NCBI GenBank assembly: GCA_050248495.1
Contig: JBFWSG010000004.1
Span: 23,686 to 87,685 of the forward strand
Direction: 5' to 3'
DNA from: Pirellulales bacterium
GTDB taxonomy: Bacteria > Planctomycetota > Planctomycetia > Pirellulales > Lacipirellulaceae
DNA length: 64,000 nucleotides
Of this stretch, positions 5,242-55,409 are shown piece by piece. The first letter of the stretch is position 1; the number at the start of each line of letters is the position of its first letter. The translations under genes were made by a program, and so were the position numbers. The notes beneath the pieces were generated by a model. It was not told the DNA's origin, did not search any database, and saw only the letters and a list, made by a program, of their open reading frames with translations.

Positions 5242-5610
5242 CTATCCCAGCACCGCCGCGAGCTTCTCTCTCGTCGCCGGGTCGTCGAACTCCAACTTGC
5301 CGAAGCCGCGATGGGCTCCGGCCGCGACTGCCGCGTCCTGGTGATCGGCGTAGTTGGTGACGAGCATCACCGGCACATGGGCGACTTCGGCCGCCCGTTT
5401 GATCTCCCGCAGGATCTCGATGCCGTCCGAGTAGTCGGCGTCCAGCTTGCGGTTGATCAGCACCAGGTCGAAGTGGCCGGCGCGCAGCTCGGAGAGCGTA
5501 TCGGAGAGGCCGTGCGTCTGCACGATCTCGACATCGAAGTGGTTGGTGAGGTAACGTCGGATCGCGGCGTGGTCCGGCCCGCATTGCCCCACGTCGAGCA
5601 CGCGCTTCAC
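5242..5610 (-). CDS. receiver-like (CheY-fold) single-domain protein, atypical
   Basis: It is 122 aa with an alternating beta/alpha pattern and conserved-looking Thr (VMLVTNY) and Lys (GFGKLEF). The phospho-acceptor position appears to be Asn (DLVLIN), not Asp. Its start overlaps the upstream PQQ-propeller gene by 4 nt (5607-5610). Confidence 0.5.
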   Translation of the reverse strand: MKRVLDVGQCGPDHAAIRRYLTNHFDVEIVQTHGLSDTLSELRAGHFDLVLINRKLDADYSDGIEILREIKRAAEVAHVPVMLVTNYADHQDAAVAAGAHRGFGKLEFDDPATREKLAAVLG

Positions 5611-7400
5611 GACTTTGATTCCTTGTCGGCTGCTTTTTTGTCGTCCTTCTTGACGTCCTGCTTGCCGGCGGCCGCATCCTGCGAGGTATCTTTCTTCGGC
5701 GGCGCCTTGGGCTCGGCGCCTTCCTGGATCGCGAATAGGTGGGTGCGGTTGGCGATGTAGAGTACGTTGTCGGCGACGACGGGCGTGCTGTAGACGCTGT
5801 TGCCCATGTTGATTTCACCCAGCGCCGGCATATCGTCTTCCATGGCCACCTTTGGATCGGCTGAGTGACGGAAGATCGCGACGTCGCCATCTTCATCGCC
5901 GACATAGACTTTGCCGTCGACGATCAGCGGCGAGCCCCAGGCCGCGGCCAGCATGTCGTACACCCAGTTCACCTTGCCGGTCTTGGCGTTGAGGCAGTGG
6001 AACAACCCGCTGAAGTCCGCGATGTACAAGATGTCGTCCTTGATCGCCACGGTGCCCACAGTGCGGTGCATCGTTTCTTCAAAGTCGATCTCACCATCGC
6101 CGTTCGTGTCCTGGCTGGCGTAGTGCCAGATGACGGCCGAATTCGGATTCGGCCGCGCGAAGTCGCCCTCTTCCTTCACCACGGCCTGCAACCGCTTCGG
6201 CGGAATCGGCGTCGACGGGTCCTTCGAGTTGAAAGCCAGTTCCGGCGACACGTCGCCCCGCTTGGTCGGGTCGATGCAATACAAATGTCCGATGCCTTCG
6301 CCGTGCTCCGGATCCTCGCCGACCGCCACATACACCAGGCCGTCGTAAATTACCGGCGTGGCGATGATGTGGTTCCGCGTGGCCTTGCCGCTCACGGTGT
6401 AGAACGCATCCTTCGGGTTGGCGTCGAACTTCCAAAGCAACTTGGCATTGCCTTTGCCATCGCCCTCGGGAACGAAGCTGTAGACCCAGCCGTCCCCGCC
6501 GGCGAATAGAACTTGCGGCACTCCGCCCAGAACTCCATAAGTCGGCGACGACCACTGGCCGTGCAAAATGTTCAGCCCCGGCGAGCGGTCGGTCCAGAGC
6601 ACCTTCTTCGTGTCCTTATCCATTACGAAAAAACTCGGAGCATCCGGCGCGGGGATATAGTTGTGCTCGACGTCGACGCCGTTCGAAGTGTTGACGAACA
6701 ACAACTTGCCGGCGTCCGTCACCGAGCAGCTGCACATGTTGTGCTGCGAGATGCCCATCTCCTTCATCATGTCGAAGACCCAGATGACGTCGGCCTCGTC
6801 GTCGGTCGTGAACTGCTCGTCTTTATACGGCCCGTCATTTTCGCCGTCGTGGAAGCCCTCCGTGTCGAGGCAGCGGACCTCGCCGCGATTGGTGACAAAC
6901 CACAGCTTGTGGTCCTCGACCAGCGGCGCGGAGCAGACGCCCTGTTGCGGCCAATCGTGGACGCGCCCCGTCGGCAGCTTCTCGCTCGAATGCTGCCAGA
7001 GGAACCGACCGTCCTTGATGTCGAACGCCAACAGGCACCCCAAGTCGACGCTCGCCGGATAGCGGCTCAGCCAGCCGCCGTAGTTGTTAGTGCCGACAAA
7101 GACCTTGCCGTCGGCAACCACCGGATTGCCGTAGCTCTGCGAGCCGAGCTTGGCGACCCATTTGATATTCTTCGAGCCGGTCGGGTCCCAATCGCCCGTG
7201 CGGAGATTGAATTTGCCGACCTTCCATTCGCTCGGGATGTTGTGGCCGACCGCGACGTTATTGCGGCTGGACGAAATTCCCCATTGATTCACTTCGTGGG
7301 TGACCTTGTCATTCGTGTCGACGGCGTCGCCTGCAACCGCCGCCATACCAACAACACAGCATCCGCCCGTCACGATCAGCTTCAATAGCCAAAACTTCAT
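5607..7400 (-). CDS. PQQ-like beta-propeller repeat protein (BamB/PQQ enzyme-repeat family), secreted
   Basis: It has a signal peptide. Repeated motifs such as G.VY.G..DG.L.A.D..TGK..W recur throughout. The C-terminus is a lysine-rich tail. Confidence 0.8.
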   Translation of the reverse strand: MKFWLLKLIVTGGCCVVGMAAVAGDAVDTNDKVTHEVNQWGISSSRNNVAVGHNIPSEWKVGKFNLRTGDWDPTGSKNIKWVAKLGSQSYGNPVVADGKVFVGTNNYGGWLSRYPASVDLGCLLAFDIKDGRFLWQHSSEKLPTGRVHDWPQQGVCSAPLVEDHKLWFVTNRGEVRCLDTEGFHDGENDGPYKDEQFTTDDEADVIWVFDMMKEMGISQHNMCSCSVTDAGKLLFVNTSNGVDVEHNYIPAPDAPSFFVMDKDTKKVLWTDRSPGLNILHGQWSSPTYGVLGGVPQVLFAGGDGWVYSFVPEGDGKGNAKLLWKFDANPKDAFYTVSGKATRNHIIATPVIYDGLVYVAVGEDPEHGEGIGHLYCIDPTKRGDVSPELAFNSKDPSTPIPPKRLQAVVKEEGDFARPNPNSAVIWHYASQDTNGDGEIDFEETMHRTVGTVAIKDDILYIADFSGLFHCLNAKTGKVNWVYDMLAAAWGSPLIVDGKVYVGDEDGDVAIFRHSADPKVAMEDDMPALGEINMGNSVYSTPVVADNVLYIANRTHLFAIQEGAEPKAPPKKDTSQDAAAGKQDVKKDDKKAADKESKS

Positions 7401-7531: not shown

Positions 7532-9811
7532 TTAGTTGTTCGGCGTCACGATCACGTTGTCCACGAAGATTTCCGCCTCGGGACAATTGCCGTAGAGGCC
7601 CGGTGTGCCGTGCAGATTGGGCGACTGATCGACCATCTCGACGGTCCAGTCCTGCGGCTCGGCATCGCCGCGCTTCCAGATCTTGCCCATCACCTTGGCT
7701 TCCTTTTCGCCCGGCTCGACGCGCAGCTTCATCGTGTACCAGGTATCCGGCACCGGGTCGAAGTCGACGCTGGTGTGCTTGCGATAGTCGCTCGTCGTCC
7801 AGGAGTCGAGCCGCAGCTTCTTGCTCAGCCCGCGGATCGTGAGCTGGTAGCGGCCGTCGATCAGCCCGATGTCGGAAATCTTTCCGCTCGCTTCGTCCTT
7901 CTTCAGAAGCACGTCACCCTGGATCGTGTAGTTCGACAGGTCGATCGGCCCCATCCAAACGAAGCTCCGCGTGCCGAGCTTGTTGTTGGGATCTTTCGGC
8001 GTGGGGAGGACGGTCTTCTTGGCGATGTACTTCTCGCCGCCGCTCTCGCGCGGCTCGAAGCGGACCCGGCCGCCGATCCAGGTGAGCGGCACGTCGCCGT
8101 CGTTGAAGTCGAATTTCCAGGGGAGCGGCGGCGTGATCCGCACCCGGGCCGTGCCCGTCAAGTCGCCGAGCTTGCAGGTGACCAAGGCGGTGGCCTGCTT
8201 TGCGTCCTTGGGGGCGATGTACGTGCCGTCGGAGGTGATGCTCCCCGGGCCGTCGACTGCATATTTAAGTGCGTCCGGCGCAAGCTTAGCCTTGATTTCA
8301 CGTCCGCGGGAATCGAACAGCTTTACGTGATACGACTGCTCCCCGCCGGGCTTGAGCAGCGCGTCGTAGGGAATTACTTGGAGCTGGGCGGGGCCGGCCT
8401 TGCCGTCCGGCGTCGACTCCTTGGGCTCCGGCGGCAGCGGATCGGCCGACGGCTTCACCGACGGATCGGCGATGCAATACAGCGCGCGTGAGGTCGGCAG
8501 GAACAAGCGGCCATGCGACACCGCGAGCGAGCCATCGCTCTGGTCGTTCGGGAGCCGCAGCTGCTGGATGACTTTGACGCCGGTTTTCGTCGGCTTGAGG
8601 ACGTACCAGCGGCCTTCCATCGTGCACAGGTACAGCTTGCCGTCGGCCACCAGTGGCGTGCTCCGCATGCTGGTACCCAGCGCCTTGCGAGCGATGAACT
8701 CGCCCGTCTTGGCGTTATAGATGTAGAGCTTTGCCCGGTCGTCGACAAAGTAGACGCGATCGTCAAGGATCACTGGCGAGGACTTGCCCGCCATCACTTG
8801 CAGCTCTTGCCACAGCTCGGTCCCCGTCAGGTCGCCTGATTTCTTGCCGTCGAGCGCGACGACAGCACCCATCGAACTGCCAACGCGGTTCTCTTCGCTG
8901 TGACTGATATATACAGTGCCGTCCGGCGCCACCAGCGGCGAGACATTCATGCCGGAACCGGACATTGGATAATGCCAAAGCGGTTTGCCGGTCCGCGGCT
9001 GCAACGCCCACACTTCGCCGTCGCCCGAGGCAAACACCAGCGCCGCCTGGCCGTCGATCATCGTCACGGTTGGCGTGCTGTAAGTCGTATCGAAAGGACT
9101 GATGCCCGTGCCGTTGAGCCAGCGGAGCTCGCCGGTCTTCTTGTCGAAGGACATGAAGCGATGCGCCGGGCGCGCCAGCCCGCCCCACTTCGGTGCATCG
9201 CCCCAGCCGACCACTACGGCGCTGATCAGCACCGTGTCTTCGAACACCACCGGCACATTCGTCCGGCCGCCGTAGGTCGAGATCAGCCCGAACTCTTCAT
9301 GCAGGCTGCGCTCCCATTTGACTTTGCCGGTCTTGCCGTCGAGGCAACAGAAGTAACCGCTCACGCCCTGGATGTAGACGTCGCCGGTTTCGGGATCGAC
9401 GACCGGGCAGGACCAGCCAATCCGCTCGTCCGGCACGTCGGTCAGATACATGTTGAAGCTGTGTTCCCAGATCGTCTTGCCCGTTGCGGCGTCGACGCAG
9501 ACGACTTTCTCCGACTCTTCCTCCGTGGCCGGCTTATCTCGGACGATCGTGTAGAGGCGGTCCTGAAACACGACCGGCGACGAACGGCCGCCGAGGTCCT
9601 CGCGAATCCAGAGCAGATTGCTCCCCTGGCCGCCGTCCGGATCCCAGCTTTCCGGGAGCCCTTTTTCCGTGGAGACGCGATCCTGCCGCGGACCACGCCA
9701 ATTTGGCCAATCCATCGGGTCCGGACCGGCCGCGGCGACGAAACTCACCAGCGACTCGACGAGCAAAACGGACGCAAAACCAAGGGAAACGACGCGAAAT
9801 CGACCGTTCAT
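7532..9811 (-). CDS. PQQ-like beta-propeller repeat protein with an extra C-terminal beta-rich domain, secreted
   Basis: It is a paralogue of 5607-7400, with motifs such as CLDGKTGKVKWE and YIYNAKTGEF. The start is likely at 9811 (MNGRFRVVSLGFASVLLV signal peptide, AGGTGA Shine-Dalgarno 7 nt upstream); the track ORF extends to 9901. Confidence 0.8.
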   Translation of the reverse strand: MNGRFRVVSLGFASVLLVESLVSFVAAAGPDPMDWPNWRGPRQDRVSTEKGLPESWDPDGGQGSNLLWIREDLGGRSSPVVFQDRLYTIVRDKPATEEESEKVVCVDAATGKTIWEHSFNMYLTDVPDERIGWSCPVVDPETGDVYIQGVSGYFCCLDGKTGKVKWERSLHEEFGLISTYGGRTNVPVVFEDTVLISAVVVGWGDAPKWGGLARPAHRFMSFDKKTGELRWLNGTGISPFDTTYSTPTVTMIDGQAALVFASGDGEVWALQPRTGKPLWHYPMSGSGMNVSPLVAPDGTVYISHSEENRVGSSMGAVVALDGKKSGDLTGTELWQELQVMAGKSSPVILDDRVYFVDDRAKLYIYNAKTGEFIARKALGTSMRSTPLVADGKLYLCTMEGRWYVLKPTKTGVKVIQQLRLPNDQSDGSLAVSHGRLFLPTSRALYCIADPSVKPSADPLPPEPKESTPDGKAGPAQLQVIPYDALLKPGGEQSYHVKLFDSRGREIKAKLAPDALKYAVDGPGSITSDGTYIAPKDAKQATALVTCKLGDLTGTARVRITPPLPWKFDFNDGDVPLTWIGGRVRFEPRESGGEKYIAKKTVLPTPKDPNNKLGTRSFVWMGPIDLSNYTIQGDVLLKKDEASGKISDIGLIDGRYQLTIRGLSKKLRLDSWTTSDYRKHTSVDFDPVPDTWYTMKLRVEPGEKEAKVMGKIWKRGDAEPQDWTVEMVDQSPNLHGTPGLYGNCPEAEIFVDNVIVTPNN

Positions 9812-10364
9812 GGACCCATCACCTGTCGAAAAACGGAAAAACCACCTGGCGAGAGGCTGAGCATCAGGAAGGCGACTGGAGAGTCGACCCAGCCGATACA
9901 AATTACGAGTTCGAGCCGTTTTGGTTCGATTTTCCTGGGGGATGATTCTGCGGCACTGCCAGCACCCGACCTCGCTGCATCGACTCCAGCCTCTCCCGCC
10001 CGACTCCTCAACGTTGCCAACTAGATAAACTCTAACGCCAGGATATCAGACTTCGTGGCCACTCACCACGTCCGGAGGGACTCACAACCGGTACGACCGG
10101 AAGCCCTTCGCCACGTGGCGCGCACTGCAAAGTCACCTTAAAAGTTGCGGCAGGCCCCACACCAAAAAATTCTTCCGATCCCTTCGAGGCGCGGTCGATA
10201 CGAGGGATGTCGCAGTGAGAGCACCCGCGTGCTTTCGCGCGACGGAGAGTCTGAACGTCGGCGCATCGGCCCGGACAAAATTCGAGCCATGGATTGGCTT
10301 GACTGATGCGACGACGTCCTACCTTGGAACCCCCCCAGCACGTCCCGCCTGATTCCGACTCCCG

Positions 10365-10381
10365 GCACTTTAAAAGTGCCC
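10365..10381. promoter_or_regulatory. palindrome GGCACTTT-A-AAAGTGCC upstream of the Cys-rich protein gene
   Basis: Perfect 8-bp inverted arms with a 1-nt spacer lie about 150 bp upstream of the 10528 start. Confidence 0.35.
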
Positions 10382-10527
10382 CTTACGCCGGTCGGAGACT
10401 CGGCTCGGAGTAGAAAGCATCCGTCTACACGATCGAACTGCGCGTTCGGCGTGGGGCGGCATCGCGCGTTGCCGGAAGTCGGCACAGATTCGCTGTGGGG
10501 AATTCCACAAATAGGAGACGATGTTCG

Positions 10528-11319
10528 ATGAAGTGGAACTTTTTGGGAGCGCTCATGATGAGCATCGCCCTGGCGAGCCCAAGTTTTGCGACTTGCTGCT
10601 TGCTGGACAAGATGCTCGGGGGCGGCTGCGGATGCTGCGAAGAGGCAAGCTGCAGCTGTTGTGAAAAATCGTGCTGCTGCGAGGAAGCGTCCTGCGGTTG
10701 TGAAGACAGCTGCTGCTCCTCGTGCGGCTGCGGCGGCGGTGGCTGCTGCGTGCTCGATCGGCTGAGCGGCTTGTTCAGCTGTCATCACGGCTGCGGCTGC
10801 TGCGAAGCCAGCTGCGGTTGTGAAGAAGCTTCTTGCTGTGCCGAAGCCTCGTGCGGCTGCGAAGATAGCTGCTGCTCGAGCTGCGGTTGCAAGAAGGGCT
10901 GCTGCCTGTTGGACGGCCTGTGCGGCATGTTCAAGTGTCATCACGGCTGCGGCTGCTGCGAAGCCAGCTGCGGTTGTGAAGCTTCTTGCGGTTGCGAAGC
11001 CTCGTGCGGCTGCGAAGATAGCTGCTGCTCGAGCTGCGGCTGCAAGAAGGGCTGCTGCCTGCTCGGTGGCCTGTGCGGCCTGTTCGGTCACAATCACGGC
11101 TGCGGCTGCTGCGAAGCCAGCTGCTGCTGCGAGCCCAGCTGCGGCTGTGCCTCGTCGAGCTGTGGTTGCGAAGGTGGTGGCGACAGCGCCGCTCCTGCCG
11201 AAGAAGCTGCTCCTGAGGAGAACGCTTCGGCTCGCATGATCCCGCCGTTGCCGATGGCTGATCCGAATGCCTCGATCAGCCGCGAGCGCGACGTCGTCCG
11301 CACCAGCTTCACCCGCTAA
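10528..11319 (+). CDS. secreted, extremely cysteine-rich (about one-third Cys) tandem-repeat protein, metallothionein-like
   Basis: A GGAGA Shine-Dalgarno precedes the ATG at 10528. The signal peptide is MKWNFLGALMMSIALASPSFA. Three ~50-aa repeats follow (CHHGCGCCEASCGCE(E)ASC..EDSCCSSCGCKKGCCLL.GLCG.F) with CxC/CC motifs, Glu and His, and a Cys-free acidic tail. Confidence 0.8.
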   Translation: MKWNFLGALMMSIALASPSFATCCLLDKMLGGGCGCCEEASCSCCEKSCCCEEASCGCEDSCCSSCGCGGGGCCVLDRLSGLFSCHHGCGCCEASCGCEEASCCAEASCGCEDSCCSSCGCKKGCCLLDGLCGMFKCHHGCGCCEASCGCEASCGCEASCGCEDSCCSSCGCKKGCCLLGGLCGLFGHNHGCGCCEASCCCEPSCGCASSSCGCEGGGDSAAPAEEAAPEENASARMIPPLPMADPNASISRERDVVRTSFTR

Positions 11320-11356
11320 GCGGCGAGTGAGCACGGTCGACTAGATCGATAGCAAC

Positions 11357-11396
11357 AGCCTGCCTCGGACCACAAGTCCGAGGCAGGCTTTTTTTG
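11357..11396 (+). terminator. rho-independent terminator of the Cys-rich protein gene
   Basis: cagcctgcctcggac-cacaa-gtccgaggcaggct is a 14-bp perfect stem. It is followed by tttttttg. Confidence 0.8.
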
Positions 11397-11420
11397 TGCC
11401 CGCACTCGTTCCATTTTCTG

Positions 11421-11510
11421 CCGCAGATGTCGCAGATGGCCGCAGATAACGCTCGGCGAAATCTGCATTCACCTAGGCTCCCAAATCTGCGAACATCTGC
11501 GCAATCTGCG
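11421..11510. promoter_or_regulatory. heptamer dyad array: 3 direct CGCAGAT units followed by 4 inverted ATCTGCG units
   Basis: The direct units are ccgcagat gt cgcagat ggc cgcagat. The inverted units are aaatctgc, aaatctgcg, acatctgcg and caatctgcg. The array ends about 30 bp before the ATG at 11540. Confidence 0.55.
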
Positions 11511-11539
11511 GCAACAAAATACCAAGGCCTCTGGCAAAC

Positions 11540-12325
11540 ATGTCCGGCAAAGGAATAGTCCTGGCCACGCTCCTACTGACCGCGATCTGCGGCGAGTCGT
11601 TCGCCCAGGGCACTTCTGCGCCGGTTGCTGCTCAAACGCCGACCGCCACCTCGCCCGACAAGATCGCCGCGGCTGTCGCCCAACTGATCGCCGACGCGAT
11701 CCCCCGCGAATACGAACGCAAGAAAGACTGGGGCCGCCAAAAGGAAATCACCACCGGCCTCCACAGCTACGGCAACTTCTTCAAATTCGACATGCACCGC
11801 ACCAAGACGGCGGTCAACCACGGCGTCTGGAAACACTATCGCGCCACACTCGTTGATCCGCAGCACAATTTACAGGTGCGGATCGACAACCTCCGCAGTG
11901 TGGCCGCCGGCCGTATTGCGTTCACGCTATTTGTGACGACGAAACTTCACGGCTGGGGACGGGCCAAAGTCTACGACCGAGGCGTCCACGTCATCGCGCT
12001 GGAAGCGGAGACCGACGCCAAGGTCAGCCTCTGGCTGGACTGCGAAATCGCCCTCGAAGCCGCGCCCGCGTCGTTCCTCAGCGGCATTGCGGTCCGGCCG
12101 CAGATCACTTCCGCCCGCATGAATCTCGATGAATTCCGCCTGACTCGGATCAGCGACGTCAGCGGTCCCGTGGTCCGCGAGCTGGGCGACGGGATCAAGC
12201 ACCTGATCGAAGACGAGCTCAACGGCCCGAAACTCGCCGCCAAGCTGAACCATTCGATCGAGAAGCGCCGCGACCGCCTGGTATTCACGCCCGATATGTT
12301 GCTGGGCGCGACACCCAACAAGTGA
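11540..12325 (+). CDS. secreted hypothetical protein
   Basis: The signal peptide is MSGKGIVLATLLLTAICGESFAQG. The ORF is clean, 261 aa, with GC-rich third positions. Confidence 0.7.
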   Translation: MSGKGIVLATLLLTAICGESFAQGTSAPVAAQTPTATSPDKIAAAVAQLIADAIPREYERKKDWGRQKEITTGLHSYGNFFKFDMHRTKTAVNHGVWKHYRATLVDPQHNLQVRIDNLRSVAAGRIAFTLFVTTKLHGWGRAKVYDRGVHVIALEAETDAKVSLWLDCEIALEAAPASFLSGIAVRPQITSARMNLDEFRLTRISDVSGPVVRELGDGIKHLIEDELNGPKLAAKLNHSIEKRRDRLVFTPDMLLGATPNK

Positions 12326-22601: not shown

Positions 22602-23561
22602 CTAGTCCGCCATCACATTCTCAATCATTTCTCGCACCGACCACACCTTTGTTGCAACGCCGTGGGCAACGGCCGGCGTCAGCCCTTTCAATGTCTTGTG
22701 TTGACGGCAATAGTTGTAATGACAGAAGTACACGGCCAGCGCGGCACGGTGGTTGTTCCACTTCTTTGAGAAGCAGTAGGTCAAGCGGCCCATGCGCTTC
22801 ATGTGGGTGCGGATGCTGCCGTTCATTCGCTCAACGTGCGAGGTGCATATCTGATCTTGTTGGAATGGCGTGCCGTGCATCGGGGTCCGGCTGGCCCCTA
22901 TTATCCGAGCCGGTGAGTACCGGCGCTGGTCCTCGTAGACATTGACGCCGTATATCTTTTGCATCACGCCGTGGTCGACGCGGTGTCCAAGCTGCTTTTT
23001 GATTTCGCTTGGATAGCTCCGCCAGCCGTCGCTACTAACGTGGAAGTGACCGAACGTGGCCCGGTCCAGTTTGGCGATGAACTGCTCGGTGTGCTGCTGG
23101 CTGCGGCGGCCCATGTGCCAAGTAATGAGCAGCTTTGATTGGCGGTCGATGGCGGTGTAGCAATAGCTGTCGCCGCAGCCGCCAACCATCTTCTGCGCTT
23201 TTGTGGTCGCGTTTTTTGCTAAAATAAATTGCCAAATTTCGTCCACCTGGGTGTCGCTGACAAACACGTCCTTAATGTGTTCGGCCATGTACTTTTCGCA
23301 GTGCTCGCCGAGCATCGTGAGCAGCGAGAGGATCGTCATTAAGTCGGTGCCGGTGAAGCGGGCGGTGGCGCGAACATTCATGCCCTCGCACAGCAGCTCG
23401 ACGATCTTGGCGGCTTGCTCAACGCCGATCCGCATGCCGCCCAGCATGGCGGTGGATTCGGTCCAGGACGCGCCGCAGCTCTTGCAGCGGTAGCGGGTGG
23501 CCCCGGCCTTAGTTTTCCCATTCGTGCGGCGGTTCTCATGCTGACAGACGGCGGCAATCAT
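22602..23561 (-). CDS. DDE transposase, IS1595-family-like
   Basis: An N-terminal zinc ribbon (RYRCKSCGASWTE) is followed by a DDE-like core (DEIW..., AIDR, SDGWRSY). The C-terminal motif is YFCHYNYCRQHKTLKGLTPAVAHG. Confidence 0.75.
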   Translation of the reverse strand: MIAAVCQHENRRTNGKTKAGATRYRCKSCGASWTESTAMLGGMRIGVEQAAKIVELLCEGMNVRATARFTGTDLMTILSLLTMLGEHCEKYMAEHIKDVFVSDTQVDEIWQFILAKNATTKAQKMVGGCGDSYCYTAIDRQSKLLITWHMGRRSQQHTEQFIAKLDRATFGHFHVSSDGWRSYPSEIKKQLGHRVDHGVMQKIYGVNVYEDQRRYSPARIIGASRTPMHGTPFQQDQICTSHVERMNGSIRTHMKRMGRLTYCFSKKWNNHRAALAVYFCHYNYCRQHKTLKGLTPAVAHGVATKVWSVREMIENVMAD

Positions 23562-37807: not shown

Positions 37808-39865
37808 ATGCCCAATCATCTCGCCCACGAATCGAGCCCGTATCTCTTGCAGCACCAGAACAATCCGGTGGATTGGTATCCCTGGGGGGACGCGGCAATT
37901 GAAAAGGCGCGGCGGGAGGGGAAGCCGATTTTTCTGTCGATCGGTTACTCGGCCTGTCACTGGTGCCACGTGATGGAGCACGAGAGTTTTGAGAGTGAGG
38001 CGATCGCGGCAGTGCTCAACGCGCATTTCGTGTCGATCAAAGTCGACCGCGAGGAACGGCCGGACCTTGACCAGATCTACATGAACGCGGTGCAGATGCT
38101 CACGGGCCGCGGCGGCTGGCCGATGAGCGTGTTTCTCACGCCGGAGCTCAAACCGTTCTATGGTGGCACGTACTGGCCACCGACCGGCCGGCAGGGCATG
38201 CCGGGGTTCGATCAAATTTTGACGGCCGTGGTCGATGCCTGGCAGAATCGCCGCGAGCAGGCCATGACGGCGGCGGACCAGCTGACGGCTGAGCTGCAAA
38301 AAGTCGGCGCGGGCGAGGGCGGCAGCGATGCGAGCGCGCTCTCGCTCGATTTGATCGGCGGCGCGGTGAACCAGCTCGCGCGGATGTTCGATCGGACGTA
38401 CGGCGGCTTCGGGCAGGCGCCGAAGTTTCCGCATCCAATGGATTTGCAGCTGCTCTTGGCCGTTTATTCGAGGAACAAACAGCCGGCGCTACTCGACATG
38501 GTCCGCGTGACGCTCGACCGGATGGCGGCGGGCGGCATTTATGATCACTTGGGCGGCGGCTTCGCGCGGTACTCGGTCGACGCCCACTGGTTGGTCCCTC
38601 ATTTCGAGAAGATGCTCTACGACAACGCCCTCCTGGCTCGGGCGTACACTGACGCGTACCTCGTCACGGGCGACACAAACTATGCCCGCATCGTCCGCGA
38701 GACGCTCGACTACGTGCTCCGCGACATGACCGACCCCAAAGGCGGCTTCTACAGCACCGAGGATGCCGACAGCGAGGGCGAGGAAGGACTGTTTTACACC
38801 TGGACGCCGGACGAGATCGACGCGGTGCTCGGCGACGAACGCGGGGCGACGTTTGGCCGCGTATTCGACGTCACCGACGCCGGCAATTTCGAGCACGGCC
38901 GCAGCATCCTCAACCTGCCGAAGACGCTCGAGCAGTGTGCCAAGATTATGAAACGGCCGCTCGAGGAACTGGTCAATGAATTGACGCAGTCCAAAAAAGA
39001 ATTGTTCGAGGTGCGTGAGAAGCGCACTCATCCCGGCAAGGATGACAAGGTGATTGTCGCGTGGAACGGGCTGGCGATCGACGCCATGGCCCGGGCCGGC
39101 ACGGCGCTTCACGAGCCGCAGTACGTATTGGCGGCCGAATCGGCGGCCGACTTCATCTTGCGCGACATGCAGCAGGACGGCCGGCTGCTGCACACCTGGC
39201 GGCAAGGGCAGGCGAAGCTCGCGGCCTATCTCGACGATTACGCGGCACTCGCCAATTCCTTCGTAACGCTGTACGAAGCGACAGGCTGCGAACGCTGGAT
39301 CGACGAGGCGGTGCGGCTGATCGACGTCGTGCTGGAGCGGTTTGCTGATCGTGAGGGAGGCGGCTTCTTTTACACAGCAAACGATCACGAGACGCTGCTC
39401 ACACGGACCAAGGAACTCACCGATAGCAGCGTGCCGAGCGGCAATTCCCTGGCCGCGACGGCGCTGCTGCGGCTGGGGAAGCTGCTCGGCCGCGGCGAGT
39501 ATTTGGAGGCGGCCGAGAAAACGCTCCTGGCCGCCGAGCCGGTTCTGCAGCGTGCGCCAATGGCGGCCGGGCAGATGCTGCTGGCGCTCGACCGGTATTT
39601 GGGGCCGAGCAACGAATTGGTGCTGGTCGGCACGATGGATGAGGAATTTGAGAACGCGGTCCGTGCAATTCACAACCGCTACTTGCCGCGCAGCGTGCTC
39701 GCATACCGGGGCGAAAGGTCTGAGTCCGCGCTTCTTGACGAAATATTCGCCGGCAAGGTCGCGCCGGACGGCGGCCCGGCGCTCTATGTCTGTGAAAATT
39801 ACGCCTGTCGAGAACCCGTCGTAGGTATCGCGGCGATTCAAACGGCGGTCGACAACTTCGCCTAG
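37808..39865 (+). CDS. thioredoxin-domain protein (DUF255/YyaL family: N-terminal thioredoxin fold plus C-terminal six-hairpin domain)
   Basis: [50 protein letters not shown] is the family N-terminal signature. Confidence 0.85.
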
Positions 39866-45454: not shown

Positions 45455-45907
45455 TAACAAAGCGTGGCCGCGCGCGTCAAGCCGATTGTCGAAGAGTTTC
45501 CCTCCGCCGCCGCGGCGAGGTGCTGGTTCGCGTGCAAAAATCGGTGACGCAATGCGCGAACGAGGCCGATAGACTCGCCGCGATCGGCAGTGCTTGCGCG
45601 ACCCTCAAAGGGGAAGGAGCAGTTCCCGCTGATCGGCTGGGAATTGCGACGAAAATACTTGACTTTTCATTTGCGGCCCGATAGGCTCAAGCCTTCTAGC
45701 CGCAAAACGACATTGCGGCCGTCAGCTCTTTTCCCGAAAACTTAGGTTCTGCGACGGCGGCTAGCCTGGACGCCGCGCGGGACTACGGGGCGGCTTCCGA
45801 GGGGGAGCTGGTCCAGTGTATGTCCGTTGGATTTGTGGGCAGAAGCACTTCTATCGGTGCGCCGTCGCTGGGGCGCGGCGTTCCTTTGCACAGCTAGCGA
45901 GGTTTCT

Positions 45908-48004
45908 ATGTTTCGCAATCTGATATCGTTGATCGCTCGGCCTTCCACGGTGAAGTCGCGTCGTCGCCGTGGCCACAACAACTTGCGCTCGCTGTTGTCG
46001 ATCGAGAGTCTGGAAGATCGTATTGTGCTGGCGACTTCGGTCACCATCACGCCGGCAGCGGGCGTATTCGGCATTCAGGATCTCGACTACCAATACCAAA
46101 AGCTGGCCACGTTCGTCGTAACGACGGATGATTTTTCGCTTCCCGCATTTTCGATTGATTGGGGCGGCGACCCGACGATTCCCGGTAACATTACACCCAT
46201 CGAGTCGACCTTCACAAGAACGGACATCTCGCTGGTGCCGGGTGAAACAAGCACCTTCGAGGGAGTTCTGTACGGCACGTTCAGCTACGATCTTGCCGGC
46301 CCGAAGACTGCCACCATCACGGCCGTCGATCCGCTTAATCCGTCGGTCGAATTGGCAGCGGAAGGCATGGCAATTAATGTTTTTGAACAGCACTCCGGAA
46401 GCGAAACGTTTTCTCTCCTACCGCCGGCCGGACCCATCTCCGAAGCCGGCAGCTACGCTTACACGCTGAATTCGAGCTTTGGCGTTTCGGCAATCTCTTA
46501 TTCCATCGACTGGGGCGACAGCGTGCAAACCGGCATCAGCACCTTCGATGCGGTATCGTTGCATTCGCACACGTACGCGGATGATTCGCCGTTTGCGCTC
46601 AATAACTACCGGATTTCAGTTGCGGTGGAGACTGCTGGCGGCACCTTCGCCATTCAGGGCCCGGCGGTGGAGGTTCTCGACGTGGCGCCAAGCGTCGTCA
46701 TCGATGGGCCGACCAGCATTGCTGCGAACGACACGTACACGCTCAATTTGTCGTCCAGCGACGTTAGTGCCGAGGATCAGCCGGTTCAATGGCTGGTTTA
46801 CTGGGACTATGTGAACGACCCTGGCACATTCGAGATCGTGGATGCGGACCTCACGTCGGTGACTCATGTTTACACGACCGATGGGCCGCGGACGATTTTT
46901 GCCGAGTTCATGGACGATGACTTTCTTACCACGCCATCCAATACCGTTGACGTCACCGTCGGCAGCCAGCCGACGGCAGACGCGGGCGGTCCCTACACCA
47001 CGCTCGCCGATGTGCCGATCACGCTCACCGGCGTCGGCGCTGGCGGCACGAATCTGGCCTACGCCTGGGATCTCGATGGCGACGATATGTACGGCGAGCT
47101 GGGTGAAGTCGGCGCCGCGGTCACGTTTGATCCGGCCGGCGTGGCGGGTACGCGCACCGTGCGGCTCAAAGTAACCGACCTCGACACCAACGTCGTGAGC
47201 GAGCCGGATGAAGCCATGATCACGGTCAACGCCACCGGCGCGCTGGTGGTAGATGAAACTTTGCACGTGCTGGGCAGCGGCACGGGTGGCGACACGGTGA
47301 CCGTGAGCGTCAGCGGCGGCAACATCGTCGTCAACACAGGTTCCGGACCGCAGACGTTCAGCCTCGCCTCGATAGATGAGCTCAACGTCCGCACGGGGGG
47401 CGGCAACGACATCATCACGATTGCGGCCGCTGTCACGATTCCGACGACGGTTGACGCCGGCGACGGCGACGACCTCATCCTGGGTGGCGGCGGACGCAGC
47501 GTGCTCATGGGCGGTGCGGGCACCGACATCATTTACGGCGGTGCAGGCGACGATGTGCTCATGGGTGGTACGGGCAACGACCTGTTATTGGGCGGCGGCG
47601 GCAACGACGCTCTCGTGGGCGGCGGCGGCACCGACATCCTGGAAGGCGGTGATGGACGAGACGTTCTTGTCGGCGGTGTCGGCAGCGACGCCATCTTGGG
47701 CGGAAGCGGTGACGACATCCTCATCGGCGGCTACACGATCCACGACGGTAACGTCGCGGCGCTGGATCAGATCATGAACACTTGGACGAGCGGCGCCAGC
47801 CTGACCGCTCGAATCAATCTCCTCACGGCGGTGGGTGGTTTGCTCGAGGCCAATGAAGCCGTGTTTGACGACGATGCAATCGACGTGATTACCGGTGGGG
47901 CCGGCGCCGACTTGATCTTTGGCGACCGCAGCCTGTTCGGGGATGGTGCGATCGATCTGATAGCGCTGCAGACGGCCCAGGACCGCTTGATCGCGCTCAA
48001 TTGA
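45908..48004 (+). CDS. secreted RTX-type (hemolysin-type Ca-binding repeat) protein with PKD-like modules
   Basis: The C-terminus holds 12 or more nonapeptide repeats (GGAGTDIIYGGAGDDVLMGGTGNDLLLGGGGNDALVGG...). The N-terminus is RRRRGHNNLRSLLSIESLEDRIVLA. Confidence 0.75.
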   Translation: MFRNLISLIARPSTVKSRRRRGHNNLRSLLSIESLEDRIVLATSVTITPAAGVFGIQDLDYQYQKLATFVVTTDDFSLPAFSIDWGGDPTIPGNITPIESTFTRTDISLVPGETSTFEGVLYGTFSYDLAGPKTATITAVDPLNPSVELAAEGMAINVFEQHSGSETFSLLPPAGPISEAGSYAYTLNSSFGVSAISYSIDWGDSVQTGISTFDAVSLHSHTYADDSPFALNNYRISVAVETAGGTFAIQGPAVEVLDVAPSVVIDGPTSIAANDTYTLNLSSSDVSAEDQPVQWLVYWDYVNDPGTFEIVDADLTSVTHVYTTDGPRTIFAEFMDDDFLTTPSNTVDVTVGSQPTADAGGPYTTLADVPITLTGVGAGGTNLAYAWDLDGDDMYGELGEVGAAVTFDPAGVAGTRTVRLKVTDLDTNVVSEPDEAMITVNATGALVVDETLHVLGSGTGGDTVTVSVSGGNIVVNTGSGPQTFSLASIDELNVRTGGGNDIITIAAAVTIPTTVDAGDGDDLILGGGGRSVLMGGAGTDIIYGGAGDDVLMGGTGNDLLLGGGGNDALVGGGGTDILEGGDGRDVLVGGVGSDAILGGSGDDILIGGYTIHDGNVAALDQIMNTWTSGASLTARINLLTAVGGLLEANEAVFDDDAIDVITGGAGADLIFGDRSLFGDGAIDLIALQTAQDRLIALN

Positions 48005-48405: not shown

Positions 48406-51400
48406 ATGCCGATCCGCGTCGCGCTCCACCATCGCACCGAGTACAAGTACGATCGCCTGACCGAGCTGGGTCCGCAGGTGGTTCGTTTGCGCCCGGCGCC
48501 CCATTGCCGCACGCCAATCCGCGCCTACTCGCTGAAGATCTCGCCGCCCGGGCACTATCTCAATTGGCAGCAGGATCCGTACGGCAACTACCTCGCGCGT
48601 CTGGTGTTCAACGAACAGGTCAACGACTTCGTCGTCGAGGTCGACGTGCAGGCCGAGATGACGGTCATCAATCCGTTCGACTTCTTTCTGGAGCCCGCGG
48701 CCGAAAGGTATCCGTTCTCCTACACACCGACGTTGCTCAAGGACTTGATGCCGTTTCTGCACGTCTCGCCGGTGATGGAGAATTCACCGCTGGCGGACTT
48801 CATGCGGACGATCGACACCACGCCGCGGAAGACGATCGACTTCCTGGTCGACTTGAACCGGCACTTGAAAGAAGTGATCGGCTACGTGATCCGCTTGGAG
48901 CCCGGCGTACAGACGTGCGACGAAACGCTCAGCAAGCGGACCGGCTCATGCCGCGACTCGGGGTGGCTGTTGGTGAACATCCTGCGGCACATGGGCTTTG
49001 CCGCGCGGTTCGTGTCGGGCTACTTGATTCAATTGACGGCCGACGTGAAGTCGCTCGACGGGCCGAGCGGGCCGGAACACGACTTCACCGACCTGCACGC
49101 CTGGGCCGAAGTCTATCTGCCGGGGGCGGGCTGGATCGGCCTCGACCCGACGAGCGGCCTGATGGCGGGCGAAGGGCACATTCCGCTGGCCTGTACGCCT
49201 GAGCCGATCAGTGCCGCGCCGATCACCGGCACCACGTCCGAGGCGAAGTGTGAATTCGGTTTCGAAATGAGCGTCACGAGGATCCACGAAGATCCGCGGG
49301 TCACGCTGCCGTACACCGACGCCCAGTGGCAGGCGATCACGGATTTCGGCCACCATGTCGACGAGCACCTGGAGCGCGGCGACGTGCGGCTCACGATGGG
49401 CGGCGAGCCGACCTTCGTGTCCATCGACGACATGGAGAGCGACGAATGGCGGACCGCGGCCACGGGCCCGCACAAGCGGCGGCTCGCCGGCGATCTGTTG
49501 ATGCGATTGAAACATCGCTGGGCGCCAGGTGGCTTGTTGCACTTGGGACAGGGCAAGTGGTATCCGGGCGAATCGCTGCCGCGCTGGGCGCTGCGCTGTT
49601 ACTGGCGCGAAGATGGCCAGCCGATCTGGCGCGACGAGTCGCTGTTTGCCGATCCGTTGGTACCGGGCACCCACACCGCCGAGGACGCTCAGCGGTTTGG
49701 CCGCGAATTGGCAGCCCGGCTGGGCGTGAATCCGGACTTCGTCACTTTTGGTTACGAAGACGCGCTCTACTACACCTGGAAGGAGCGGCGGCTACCAACG
49801 AATGTCGATATCCGCGATTCAAAGCTGGAAAACAAGGAAGAGCGGGCGCGACTGGCCAGAGTGTTCGAACAAGGAATCACTTCGCCTATCGGTTGCGTTC
49901 TGCCGCTACGAAAGCTGTGGTGGCTCGCCGAACCGGTGTGGGAGAGCGGCACCTGGGTCGTCCGCTCGGACGAGATGTTCCTGATCCCCGGCGATTCGGC
50001 GATGGGTTTCCGCCTGCCGCTGCAATCGCTGCTGTGGTACAGCGGGGCAAAGGCCGAAATGGCTGGCTACGCGATCGAGCCATTTGAAGCGCGGCTGCCG
50101 CTGCCGGAACACGACCAATTGCGTGAAGAGCTCTTTGCTCGCAGCGCGGCCTGGGCTCACAAGCGGCAACCCGTGCTCGTGGGCGGCGGCGATTCGTCCG
50201 GCGGCCCCGACAGCGGCGGCGGGCGACATGGCGGTGGTGGCGGCGAAGGCTTTGGCACCAACGGCAAGACGCCACACGATCCGTTTGCCGATCCGCGCGA
50301 TTTGCCCGAGTGGCAGCGGAACGATCCGGCGTTCGTCGTGCGGACGGCCATCTGCGTTGAGCCGCGCGGCGGCGTGCTGCACATCTTCATGCCGCCTTTG
50401 GATCGGCTCGAAGACTATTTGGAGCTCGTCACCGCGATCGAAGACACCTCGGCGGCGCTCGCGCTTCCGGTCGTGATCGAAGGCTACCTGCCGCCACACG
50501 ACTCGCGCGTCGACCATATCAAAGTGACGCCCGACCCCGGCGTGATCGAGGTAAACGTCCACCCGGCCCATCATTGGGAAGAGCTGGTCGACATCACGAC
50601 CAGCGTCTACGAAGACGCGCGCCTCGCGCGCCTCGGCACCGAGAAGTTCGATCTCGATGGCACCCACACCGGCACTGGCGGCGGCAACCACGTGGTGCTC
50701 GGCGGCCGCACGCCGCAGGACAGCCCGTTTTTGCGCCGGCCCGATTTGCTGCGGAGTCTCGTGGCCTACTGGCACAATCACCCGTCCCTCTCGTACCTGC
50801 TCTCGGGCACGTTCATCGGCCCCACGAGCCAGGCACCGCGCGTCGATGAAGGCCGCCGCGACTCGACGTACGAGCTGGGCATCGCGTTCGAGCAGTTGCC
50901 CAAGGACGGCTATTGCCCGCCCTGGCTCATCGACCGCGTCTTTCGGCATTTGCTCGTCGACGGCACCGGCAACACCCACCGCGCCGAGTTCTGCATCGAC
51001 AAGCTGTTTGCACCGGAATCATCGACCGGCCGCCTCGGGCTCGTCGAGTTCCGCGCGTTCGAAATGCCGCCCCACGCCCGGATGAGCCTCGCGCAGCAGG
51101 TGCTGCTGCGGGCGCTCGTGGCCCGCTTCTGGGAGCGGCCCTACGAAACAAAGCTCGTCCACTGGGACACGACGCTCCACGACCGCTTCATGCTGCCCCA
51201 CTTCGTGCGGCAAGATTTTGAAGACGTCGTCACCGACACGCGCGAGTCCGGTTTCGAGCTGGACCTGGCCTGGTTCGCGCCTCACTTCGAGTTCCGCTTT
51301 CCGATCATGGGTGAGTTCACCCAGCGGAGCACGCGCGTCGAACTGCGCAAAGCAATCGAACCGTGGTACGTGCTCGGCGAAGAGCCGGCCGGCGGCTATA

Positions 51401-51846
51401 CCGCGCGGTACGTCGATTCGAGCGTCGAGCGGCTGCAGGTGAAGGTCGAAGGCATGACCGACACGCGGCACATCGTCACGTGCAATGGCCGCCAGGTGCC
51501 GCTCCATCCGACCGGCACCCAGGGCGAGTTCGTCGCCGGTGTGCGGTACCGTGCCTGGCAGCCGCCCAGCTGTCTCCACCCGACGATCCCGGTCGACACG
51601 CCGCTCGAGTTTGGTCTGGTCGACACGTGGCAAAACCGCTCGCTGGGTGGGTGCACCTACCACGTAGGCCATCCGGGCGGTCTGAACCCGTCGACTTTCC
51701 CGATCAATGCCTTCGAGGCCGAGAGCCGTCGAGCGGGGAGATTTTTCCGAATCGGCTACCAGGGAGGCGTTTTGCCGCCGGCGCGGGAGGAAACAAACCC
51801 CGATTTCCCGATGACTCTCGACCTCCGCCGCGGACGAAACCGATAG
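48406..51846 (+). CDS. large transglutaminase-like family protein (Bact_transglu_N + transglutaminase core + DUF2126)
   Basis: The N-terminus is [29 protein letters not shown]. The Cys-His-Asp core context is [27 protein letters not shown]...DLHAWAEVY...WIGLDPT. Confidence 0.8.
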   Translation: [1146 protein letters not shown]

Positions 51847-51918
51847 AATTTACGTATCTCGCATGGTTTGCCTCGTCTCGCGTTGTCATCCTTCTAGGCG
51901 TTCAAGGCGGATTTTTAA

Positions 51919-54489: not shown

Positions 54490-54524
54490 CTTGGAACGGT
54501 AATAGCCGGCAACGCGACGCACCG

Positions 54525-55409
54525 ATGCGATACAACATCCGCCACACCACGATCTACTCCTACACCGATCCGGTGCCGGTTTGCCACAACTTGGTGCATC
54601 TCGCGCCGCGGGACACGCCGGCCCAGTCGTGCCGCGAGCATCGCGTGGTGATCGATCCGCAGCCCTCGGTGCGGGCCAAGCGGCGCGATTACTTTGGCAA
54701 TGACCTGGAGTTCTTCTCGATCCAGGAAGCGCATGAAGGACTGAGCGTCACGGCGATGAGCCTGGTGGACGTGTCGTCGCCGGTGCTGAAGGTCGGCGTG
54801 AAAACTCCGCCTTGGGAAAGCGTCGTTGCCGAGATTCCGGCGAACACGCGGCCGCCGGGACTGGCCGTGTATTTCCTCACGCTGCCCTCGCCGCGGATTC
54901 GCGCCTCGACCGCGCTGGCCGAATACGCGCGGCCCAGCTTCCCCGCCGGGCGGCCGATCTTTGATGCCGTCCGCGATTTTACGGCCCGCATCCACAACGA
55001 CTTCACGTTCGATCCCAAGGCCACTACGGTGAGCACGCCGCCGGAAGAGCTGCTCCAATTGCGCCGCGGCGTGTGCCAGGATTTCGCCCACTTGCAGATC
55101 GCCTGCCTGAGGTCGCTCGGCCTGGCGGCGCGGTACGTGAGCGGCTACGTAGCCACCAATCCGCCGCCCGGAATGCCGCGGCTCGCCGGCGCCGACGCCT
55201 CGCATGCCTGGGTCAGCGCCTTCTGCGGCCCCTTGGGCTGGGTCGACTTCGATCCAACCAACGACACCGTGGTCGGCGATCAGCACATCACCATCGGCTG
55301 GGGCCGCGACTACGGCGACGTCTGCCCGATCCAGGGCGTCTTCATCGGCGGCGGTCAGCACAGCATGCGCGTGGGCGTCGACGTGATCCCGCTGCCGGCG
55401 CTGAAGTGA
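54525..55409 (+). CDS. transglutaminase-like protein (Bact_transglu_N plus transglutaminase core)
   Basis: The N-terminus is MRYNIRHTTIYSYTDPV. The catalytic-Cys context is GVCQDFAHLQIACLRSLGLAARYVSGY...DASHAWV...WVDFDPTN. Confidence 0.8.
   Translation: MRYNIRHTTIYSYTDPVPVCHNLVHLAPRDTPAQSCREHRVVIDPQPSVRAKRRDYFGNDLEFFSIQEAHEGLSVTAMSLVDVSSPVLKVGVKTPPWESVVAEIPANTRPPGLAVYFLTLPSPRIRASTALAEYARPSFPAGRPIFDAVRDFTARIHNDFTFDPKATTVSTPPEELLQLRRGVCQDFAHLQIACLRSLGLAARYVSGYVATNPPPGMPRLAGADASHAWVSAFCGPLGWVDFDPTNDTVVGDQHITIGWGRDYGDVCPIQGVFIGGGQHSMRVGVDVIPLPALK

Follow-up and report, generated by a model that had tools for sequence, protein, structure and literature searches.

A predicted exported, cysteine-rich repeat protein of the Pirellulales and its candidate leader RNA

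What purpose is served by a protein that is apparently exported from the cytoplasm and in which about a quarter of all residues are cysteine (Cys)? The question is raised by a stretch of 64,000 nucleotides (nt) from a Pirellulales bacterium of the Lacipirellulaceae (GenBank assembly GCA_050248495.1, contig JBFWSG010000004.1, positions 23,686 to 87,685; hereafter the window), whose plus strand carries at 10528-11319 an open reading frame (ORF) that an earlier note, made by a model from the letters and translated ORFs alone, had described as encoding a secreted metallothionein-like protein. Taking the evidence together, we hold with high confidence that this is an apparently solitary gene with its own terminator, kept under purifying selection, that it encodes a Sec-type protein of about 242 mature residues built of blocks rich in Cys and glutamate (Glu), that its family is confined to the Pirellulales, and that a conserved leader RNA precedes it. 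To our knowledge, bacterial metallothioneins are few, small and cytosolic, and among exported stores that keep metal on Cys only the folded bundle of Csp1 has been studied well. If the gene indeed makes an acidic poly-CGC protein that is exported and can expand by repeats, it would represent a new form of extracytoplasmic metal handling or of envelope building, and would do so across a whole order of environmentally abundant planctomycetes.

The ORF is a real gene under purifying selection, as its pattern of substitution attests. Relative to the nearest relative (L087), the window sequence differs at 25, 14 and 63 first, second and third codon positions of the plus frame, with 47 synonymous and 26 non-synonymous codon changes, and a second pair of loci (L007 and L009) gives 11, 4 and 36, with 30 synonymous against 13 non-synonymous. 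Hundreds of homologues with a common architecture likewise place the gene beyond chance. A long, alanine (Ala)-rich ORF of 398 residues on the minus strand (10138-11334), with antisense counterparts at 54 homologous loci, could be taken for the true gene, leaving the plus-strand frame as an artefact of a G+C-rich repeat; this is extremely improbable in view of the third-position excess in the plus frame and the preponderance of synonymous changes in both pairs, of the signal peptide, C-terminal tail, Shine-Dalgarno sequence and terminator, all of which relatives keep on the plus strand, and of the course of the antisense ORF itself, which runs on through the non-coding leader. Read in reverse, TGC and GGC become GCA and GCC, which explains why its frame is open and rich in Ala. 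The artefact reading of 10528-11319 was accordingly rejected on the codon-position test and the conserved plus-strand features, and the minus-strand ORF, which the earlier note had already judged spurious, is best seen as this TGC/GGC mirror.

The signals that frame the coding region are equally well kept (Table 1). GGAGA of the Shine-Dalgarno sequence is invariant in 11 of 11 Lacipirellulaceae leaders, and GGAGACGT occurs at about -14 in 35 of 69 family leaders. The strong rho-independent terminator noticed earlier is borne out by a hairpin with a 14-bp stem at 11357-11389 and a run of seven T directly after it; in the spacer just 3' of the terminator lies a tandem repeat of 9 nt (GCCGCAGAT-like, 2.9 copies, 11420-11447). 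A promoter scan of 9900-11700 returned no sigma-70-like site. The gene appears to stand alone.

The precursor opens with MKWNFLGALMMSIALASPSFA followed by TCC, as translated from 10528-11319, and this N-terminus, identified by eye with small residues at -3 and -1, reads as a predicted Sec/signal-peptidase-I type signal; its counterpart is present in all 74 extracted family members, and AlphaFold2 places a helix over residues 3-16 of it (predicted local distance difference test, pLDDT, 77-89). Two other export routes were rejected: lipoprotein export for want of a lipobox with a small residue at -1, here and family-wide, and twin-arginine (Tat) export for want of an RR motif in the n-region (MKW in the window), again across the family. 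The mature product, of about 242 residues and 24 kDa with an isoelectric point near 4.5, holds 63 Cys, not the roughly 90 in some 250 residues that the earlier note had counted. Their share is 24% in the precursor, 26% in the mature protein and 33% (63/192) in the core, which means that the label 'one-third cysteine' fits the 192-residue core and overstates the mature protein. Four Cys/Glu blocks, parted by three linkers of the form CC[LV]L[DG]xLxGLFxxHHG, form this core, which contains 18 CxC motifs (15 of them CGC), 17 CC and 8 CxxC, 32 aspartate (Asp) and Glu against 13 lysine (Lys) and arginine (Arg), and as aromatics three phenylalanines with zero tryptophan or tyrosine.

Much else in the first description holds, some of it in altered form. 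The signal peptide and Shine-Dalgarno sequence that it named are both present and both conserved. So are all its motifs, CxC, CC, CHHGCGCC (twice, plus one GHNHGCGCC variant) and CCSSCGCKKGCC (twice, plus one CCSSCGCGGGGCC variant). The interleaving of Cys with Glu and histidine (His) is right for the Cys/Glu blocks, whereas His is a minor component, its six residues all lying within linkers. The tandem repeats of about 50 residues prove to be a unit of 51 residues in 2.5 copies, with a more diverged first unit 5' of the nucleotide repeat at 10741-11124. The 'acidic' tail is indeed Cys-free and acidic in its first half, but its last 15 residues are basic; in the window its conserved end reads PPLPMADPNA plus 15 residues, of which the last is Arg, and P240, P242, D245, P246 and A248 are invariant among 43 sequences. 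That description passed over the CGC[E/D] unit, the leader RNA and the motifs that are invariant at either end of the protein, all of which we take up below. AlphaFold2, given an alignment of 43 sequences, yields a pLDDT of 48.6 and a predicted template-modelling score of 0.22, the core staying below 50 along its whole length and the tail scoring 59-71, and models only the signal helix and three helices of 4-6 residues in the linkers, a result of too low confidence to serve in a fold search. The metal-free, reduced chain is hence predicted to be disordered. With its CxC and CC motifs, almost no aromatics and a core predicted to lack order, the protein thus retains the character first assigned to it, of an exported tandem-repeat protein of metallothionein-like composition.

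How widespread such a protein is was addressed by searches for relatives, as the earlier note had proposed along with a count of their repeats. A word-indexed search brought up 78; when 1.84 billion cluster representatives were searched with a profile, 577 were matched at E<=1e-3, of which 303 were at E<=1e-10 and 52 at E<=1e-30, and a second search, with a Rhodopirellula-type seed, gave 286 at E<=1e-10, so that the family comprises at least 303 clusters at 50% identity, with differing numbers of repeats. The exact sequence of the window protein is absent from a collection of 15 billion sequences. Neither Pfam (E<=10) nor NCBIfam nor sequence and profile searches of the PDB gave a match to it, and 43 family members matched no metallothionein model in Pfam at E<=1; the only Pfam matches in the family, all weak, are those of three members to the keratin high-sulfur family PF13885. 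Members with a name are all annotated as 'hypothetical protein' (for example Poly41_12050, CA51_05110, EC9_06230 and K227x_06970), apart from an automatic UniRef name, 'Stigma-specific protein Stig1', carried by one. A literature search found no paper on the family, and a Rhodopirellula baltica homologue, sought as a link to published transcriptomes, was not found. By these searches, the protein defines a family of its own that is modelled in neither Pfam nor NCBIfam.

Where the organisms are named, the family is one of the Pirellulales only. With the tail motif as query, 165 confirmed stretches were obtained from species-representative genomes, and the best 80 of these are nearly all labelled Pirellulales; the genera include Lacipirellula, Novipirellula, Rubripirellula, Rhodopirellula, Aureliella, Aporhodopirellula, Allorhodopirellula and Laterigemmans. 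The closest relative in culture, Lacipirellula limnantheis I41, is 50% identical, and the window itself contains the planctomycete marker domains PSCyt2/PSD1 and DUF1501, both of which make a Lacipirellulaceae genome the most likely source. One locus (L067, CAVOGL010000008.1) is labelled 'uncultured Chloroflexia bacterium' and shows the full Pirellulales synteny, from PQQ propellers and cupin through the Cys-rich gene and leader to HemD/E; its genome bin is probably mislabelled or chimeric.

Members share their ends and vary in between. The N-terminus follows the pattern M-K-[WRGL]-N/T ... [FY]-[GA] and then LLD[RK]MLG (in the window MKWN...SFA TCC LLDKMLG), and the tail block PPAPxVDPSA has a mean pairwise identity of 83% among 67 members, compared with 48% for the N-terminal 32 residues; 15-17 residues follow it, the last being Arg in 88% of members. 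Between these ends, Cys/acid blocks variable in number alternate with short linkers that are basic/hydrophobic and amphipathic, such as CC-LLDGL-G-LF...HHG. In 67 distinct members, 604 of 622 CxC motifs (97%) are CGC, and they are followed by Glu in 52% and by Asp in 17% of cases, giving a repeating unit [PS]-S-C-G-C-[ED] that sets a thiolate and a carboxylate side by side. Family-wide, the core is 22.8% Cys, 15.1% glycine (Gly), 11.5% Ala and 9.6% serine (Ser), with about 1.5% aromatics, and members span 148-376 residues and 19-88 Cys, the count being odd in 45 of 69. The window protein carries the whole set: a signal followed by the LLD[RK]MLG motif, CGC[E/D] blocks with linkers, a PPxPxxDPxA tail and a leader 200-370 nt upstream. 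Subfamily B, whose members are shorter, keeps blocks and linkers and ends in ...SCGCN without the tail; it is found in planctomycete-type contexts, which give no clue to its role.

The expectation that the locus would be prone to copy-number variation is met by its closest kin, among which a protein 96% identical to that of the window (P0002, 161 residues) has one linker, another at 81% (P0001/L087) has two, and the window protein three. Repetitive genes of this kind are easily mis-assembled or mis-called. Three metagenome proteins (P0045, P0049 and P0077) switch midway to 'LRLRLRS...' or an unrelated frame, apparently because the repetitive, G+C-rich coding sequence is frameshifted, and two others (P0001 and P0009) are extended upstream through the leader. 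Within GCA_036704275.1, an identical Cys-rich gene occurs on two contigs (L003 and L004), and the fragmented flanks of the former (IleRS, for example) suggest that it is a low-quality duplicate contig.

Upstream of the gene, about 330 nt 5' of the ATG are more conserved than much of the coding region, with a mean column identity of 67% in an alignment (A3) of 11 Lacipirellulaceae leaders. From nine Lacipirellulaceae sequences, a covariance model (R1; window 10197-10310, 110 positions, 23 pairs) was built and searched against both strands of 1.03 Mb; all 38 matches fall on the plus strand, 200-330 nt 5' of a family start codon, and 26 of them are in loci outside the set from which the model was built. 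A second-round model (R2) gave 48 matches in 89 sequences (1.06 Mb), again on the plus strand only, 200-370 nt before a family ATG and nowhere else, with no match at two subfamily-B loci. Bases pair in 93-95% of the cells of these alignments and both sides have changed in 19 of 23 and then 17 of 19 pairs, in sequences that are mutually related and were aligned by fitting to the model; 0 of 500 shuffles reach the observed values, and sliding the partners by 1-3 columns leaves 14-42% paired. Frequent U-G and G-U pairs fit the plus strand only, and the fold of 10197-10545 has z = -4.05 on that strand and -2.80 on the other. The structure contains two helices, one of UGUCGC with GCGACR enclosing a hairpin GCAC/GUGC, the other of CCGG with CYGG enclosing the hairpin GAGCCA-NGGAN-UGGCUY, which in its form GAGCCA-NGGAN-UGGCUC is the best conserved part; its N-GGA-N loop recurs in 46 of 48 matches. 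With this good covariation, the leader is a new candidate for a regulatory RNA.

A GGA in a hairpin loop has the look of a binding site for CsrA/RsmA, and the AGGAGAC ribosome-binding site could be a second site of this type. The leader resembles those bound by CsrA/RsmA, and those of riboswitches, in being long, conserved and endowed with helices supported by covariation, and CsrA/RsmA-bound leaders in particular in having a GGA in a 5-nt hairpin loop and a GGA-containing Shine-Dalgarno sequence downstream; it differs in being far larger than a simple CsrA site and in matching no Rfam family, none having been found in Rfam 15 with the locus at E<=1, the whole window or 11 related loci. The Rhodopirellula-1 motif, a different, multi-copy hairpin, was rejected as its identity (Weinberg 2010). 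No terminator was detected in the leader. An RNAalifold consensus pairs upstream UGUC.CC with the Shine-Dalgarno GGAGACG, and zero compensatory changes support this pairing. In several Pirellulaceae (L014, L062 and L081 among them), the Shine-Dalgarno sequence can pair, within the 20 nt before the ATG (at 6001 of these loci), with bases just 5' of that codon, and the pairings vary on both sides (GGAGAT..ATCTCC, GGAGAA..TTCTCC, GGAGAC..GGCTCC), which suggests that these loci carry a hairpin that sequesters it. The Rhodopirellula/Novipirellula/Rubripirellula group goes undetected by the Lacipirellulaceae-derived model and has a different conserved long stem, ACGAAGUCGGCG...CGCCGGCGACUUCGU, also given as GAACGAAGUCGGCG...CGCCGGCGACUUCGUYC enclosing a hairpin CCGGGUG-UCCG-CACCCGG, at about -200 to -105 from the ATG (L021, L040, L054, L064, L083, L084 and others).

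The palindrome at 10365-10381, in which the earlier note saw a possible site for a metal-responsive regulator, lies inside the structured leader and is kept only in the closest relatives: it is found in the window, L087, L088, L007 and L009, is not conserved in L001, L004 and L005, and is replaced in Lacipirellula by a different G+C-rich inverted repeat. As its sequence is unconserved beyond these nearest relatives, an operator was rejected as its main reading, and it looks more like an RNA hairpin, the simpler interpretation. Still further upstream, the conserved non-coding block at 10127-10196 may hold the promoter or operator or form a further part of the leader. As a candidate regulatory RNA, the leader provides a direct experimental handle on the signal that controls the protein.

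Table 1. Mapped features of the locus (positions in the window; residue numbers refer to the precursor).
Feature	Positions	Strand	Details
Conserved non-coding block	10127..10196	+	CAAAGT..TTGNNG..GAAAATTNCTT..CTCAAGG..CCGATAC; alignment of 21 loci, several clades
Conserved structured element (candidate leader RNA)	10197..10310	+	Covariance models R1 (87.5 bits) and R2 (62 bits)
Rest of leader	10311..10527	+	Up to start codon; alignment A3
Palindrome GGCACTTTAAAAGTGCC	10365..10381	+	Hairpin inside leader
Shine-Dalgarno AGGAGAC	10513..10519	+	8 nt 5' of ATG
Coding sequence, Cys-rich repeat protein	10528..11319	+	263 residues plus stop; homologues, codon-position test
Predicted Sec-type signal peptide, residues 1-21	10528..10590	+	Lys2, 13-residue hydrophobic core, S-F-A before predicted cleavage site
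Cys-rich acidic core, residues 23-214	10594..11169	+	63 Cys in 192 residues
Nucleotide tandem repeat	10741..11124	+	Period 153 nt (51 residues), 2.5 copies, 88% identity; Tandem Repeats Finder
Cys-free tail, residues 215-263	11170..11316	+	Last 49 residues; first half acidic, last 15 residues basic
Conserved C-terminal motif IPPLPMADPNASISRERDVVRTSFTR	11239..11316	+	Within Cys-free tail
Intrinsic terminator	11357..11396	+	14-bp stem (10 G-C pairs), 5-nt loop, T7
Receiver-domain protein	5242..5610	-	About 125 residues; part of divergent block
PQQ_2 beta-propeller proteins (two)	5607..7400 and 7532..9901	-	600-800 residues; divergent block
ORF of 261 residues	11540..12325	+	Signal-peptide-like N-terminus, no Pfam match; 265-residue gene in equal position in L087

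What, then, might the protein do? Our leading proposal, plausible and held tentatively, is that it acts as a high-capacity, metallothionein-like metal buffer in the periplasm or envelope. The chain would be exported unfolded and its disordered core would then wrap around metal ions, with Cys thiolates and adjacent carboxylates forming polynuclear metal-thiolate clusters, as in modular metallothioneins; zinc, cadmium, Cu(I) and possibly nickel, cobalt or iron are the candidate ions, and extrapolation from metallothionein stoichiometries would give 63 Cys room for about 20 divalent ions or at least 30 Cu(I). Docking or anchoring to a partner in the envelope would fall to the invariant LLDRMLG start and the PPAPxVDPSA...R tail, gain and loss of the 51-residue repeats would tune its capacity, and synthesis would be set post-transcriptionally through the leader, by a ligand or by a CsrA-type protein acting on the GGA hairpin and Shine-Dalgarno sequence. 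A metal buffer is favoured because the composition fits the operational definition of a metallothionein, because CGC[E/D] puts a thiolate beside a carboxylate and a signal peptide occurs in all members, because gain and loss of repeats resembles the evolution of long metallothioneins (PMC12508003), and because Csp1 sets a precedent for an exported bacterial Cys-based metal store (PMC7558416). In addition, the varying and often odd number of Cys and the lack of a predicted fold argue against a fixed fold defined by disulfides.

Set beside known systems, the protein is by composition and modular build most like the long modular metallothioneins and, as judged from sequence, a member of no metallothionein family. 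Such long forms exist in eukaryotes and lengthen by internal tandem duplication (PMC12508003); those of Cryptococcus neoformans (CMT1/CMT2), molluscs and Tetrahymena share with it a Cys content of 20-33%, CxC and CC motifs, almost no aromatics, tandem Cys-rich modules with spacers and a metal-free form predicted to be disordered. They have no sequence homology to it, however, and the window protein is set apart by a signal peptide, by acidity (CGC followed by Glu or Asp) in place of Lys richness, by a CxC middle residue that is almost always Gly, by conserved non-Cys terminal motifs and by a family that is bacterial and limited to one order. In terms of the usual metallothionein traits, the Cys content, the CxC, CC and CxxC motifs and the scarcity of aromatics agree, whereas a mass of about 24 kDa and a Sec-type signal depart from low mass and cytosolic location, and no family model in Pfam or NCBIfam is matched. 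Bacteria do possess Cys-rich proteins with several bound metal ions, namely SmtA/BmtA and MymT (PMC7558416), but these are cytosolic, of about 5-6 kDa, with at most nine Cys plus His and, in SmtA, a zinc-finger-like fold, while the window protein has some 24 kDa, is exported and repetitive, and does not match the Pfam model of bacterial metallothionein. Csp1 is an exported bacterial protein whose Cys thiolates store many Cu(I) ions (PMC7558416), yet it leaves the cytoplasm by Tat, already folded as a four-helix bundle, whereas the window protein has a Sec-type signal without a twin arginine; identity with the Csp proteins was rejected, there being no Tat signal, no helical bundle in the low-confidence AlphaFold2 model and no PDB match, although Csp1 entries are in the PDB.

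Several observations weigh against a metal buffer. Metal binding is inferred, with no member matching a metallothionein model or a solved structure, and the names of members, hypothetical proteins throughout, give no lead. The recurrent neighbours of the gene are a receiver-domain protein, two PQQ-like beta-propellers, a small cupin, LpxB and HemD/E, with no metal genes among them, and synteny across the order means that a housekeeping or structural role fits better than detoxification. Sec export delivers free thiols to an oxidising compartment, where disulfides may form before metal is bound. The middle residue of CxC varies in metallothioneins, so the invariant Gly of CGC is not metallothionein-like, and classical metallothioneins are Lys-rich, not acidic.

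Several of these same observations lend themselves to a structural protein of the envelope or of adhesion, an alternative nearly as likely as the metal buffer, in which intermolecular disulfides would cross-link the Cys blocks into outer layers or a holdfast and the conserved ends would serve as anchors, by analogy with the YTV Cys-rich wall proteins of Planctomycetia, chlamydial OmcA/OmcB and the keratin-associated high-sulfur proteins. Beyond export by Sec into an oxidising compartment, it would account for low-complexity repeats rich in Gly, Ser, Ala and proline, of variable length between invariant termini, and is compatible with an odd Cys count; wide conservation, synteny, housekeeping genes nearby and the lack of metal genes among recurrent neighbours also agree with it, as do the three weak matches to PF13885. 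The GGA-loop hairpin suggests control of the CsrA type, which as a rule goes with changes from motile to sessile life and back, and these bacteria have a swimmer/attached life cycle. There is precedent, too, in YTV proteins and OmcA/OmcB, secreted Cys-rich envelope proteins from the same superphylum that are believed to lend the wall stiffness by disulfide bonding (PMC12673574, PMC8567305), from which the window family differs in being far denser in Cys, of low complexity, acidic and found in Pirellulales only. Identity with YTV proteins was itself rejected, zero YTV tripeptides occurring in 67 members and neither a YTV nor any other Pfam model being matched by the window protein. Cross-linking alone, moreover, leaves the strict CGC[E/D] unit and the acidic isoelectric point unexplained, and no report of the protein in cell-wall proteomes was found, although the few Lys and Arg of the core would probably make for poor tryptic detection. 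If a structural role is the true one, the family may bear on the Cys-rich protein content reported for planctomycete cell-wall preparations.

The predominance of CGC among CxC motifs also bears on a third possibility, an extracytoplasmic thiol-disulfide redox buffer or oxidant sink in which each CGC would cycle between a dithiol and a disulfide in an 11-membered ring and so scavenge oxidants or electrophiles. CGC peptides and protein disulfide isomerase have similar reduction potentials, and in Erv2 disulfides are shuttled by a C-terminal CGC; one subfamily-B gene, furthermore, adjoins a gene with AhpC/redoxin/thioredoxin domains. We nevertheless consider this role unlikely, as no reductase or Dsb partner is found among recurrent neighbours, a stoichiometric sink needs re-reduction for which nothing here suggests a route, and the conserved tail and linkers go unexplained. 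The remaining probability falls to functions outside those discussed here.

Returning to the metal buffer, its fullest version would make the family the first bacterial class of Sec-exported, disordered, metallothionein-like buffers of CGC[E/D] repeats in the Pirellulales envelope, tuned in capacity by the number of repeats and placed under a new leader RNA of about 330-400 nt that serves as a metal or thiol riboswitch or as a large CsrA-type platform; in this compound form we regard the proposal as rather doubtful. The interest of the locus has grown with the order-wide size of the family, its invariant CGC[E/D] and terminal motifs and the coupling to an undescribed leader RNA, and the CGC[E/D] unit could appeal to designers of metal-binding or redox peptides.

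The genomic surroundings of the gene combine a constant side and a variable one. In the window, an intergenic region of 626 nt lies 5' of it, beyond which genes of the other strand form a divergent block that recurs across 87 loci and comprises the receiver-domain protein and the two propellers (Table 1) together with a small ORF of about 122 residues. A cupin-like protein of about 120 residues with a CPCGLARR motif adjoins the gene in 59 of the 87 loci and is absent from the whole window and from other Lacipirellulaceae. On the downstream side the genes differ from locus to locus, with LpxB, HemD/HemE and RsmE among them; the window has the 261-residue ORF, a FliN-domain protein and NadA there. 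Among the recurrent neighbours in the 87 loci, there is no metal transporter, sensor or resistance gene, nor one for thiol-disulfide exchange. This pattern points to a vertically inherited gene common to the order and not to a mobile or accessory resistance determinant.

Elsewhere in the window, a minus-strand ORF at 22602-23561 has a weak match to an IS1-family DDE transposase domain and is possibly the remnant of an insertion sequence. A plus-strand gene at 37808-39865, 27 kb from the Cys-rich gene, encodes a protein of 685 residues with a thioredoxin-like DsbH/DUF255 domain; no other thiol-redox gene was seen among the window ORFs scanned, and this one is unlinked to the Cys-rich gene at other loci. 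A plus-strand cluster at 48406-55409 encodes a transglutaminase-like/DUF2126 protein, a protein combining a circularly permuted ATP-grasp with an Alpha-E domain, and a further ORF, and an RTX calcium-binding repeat protein lies at 45827-48004.

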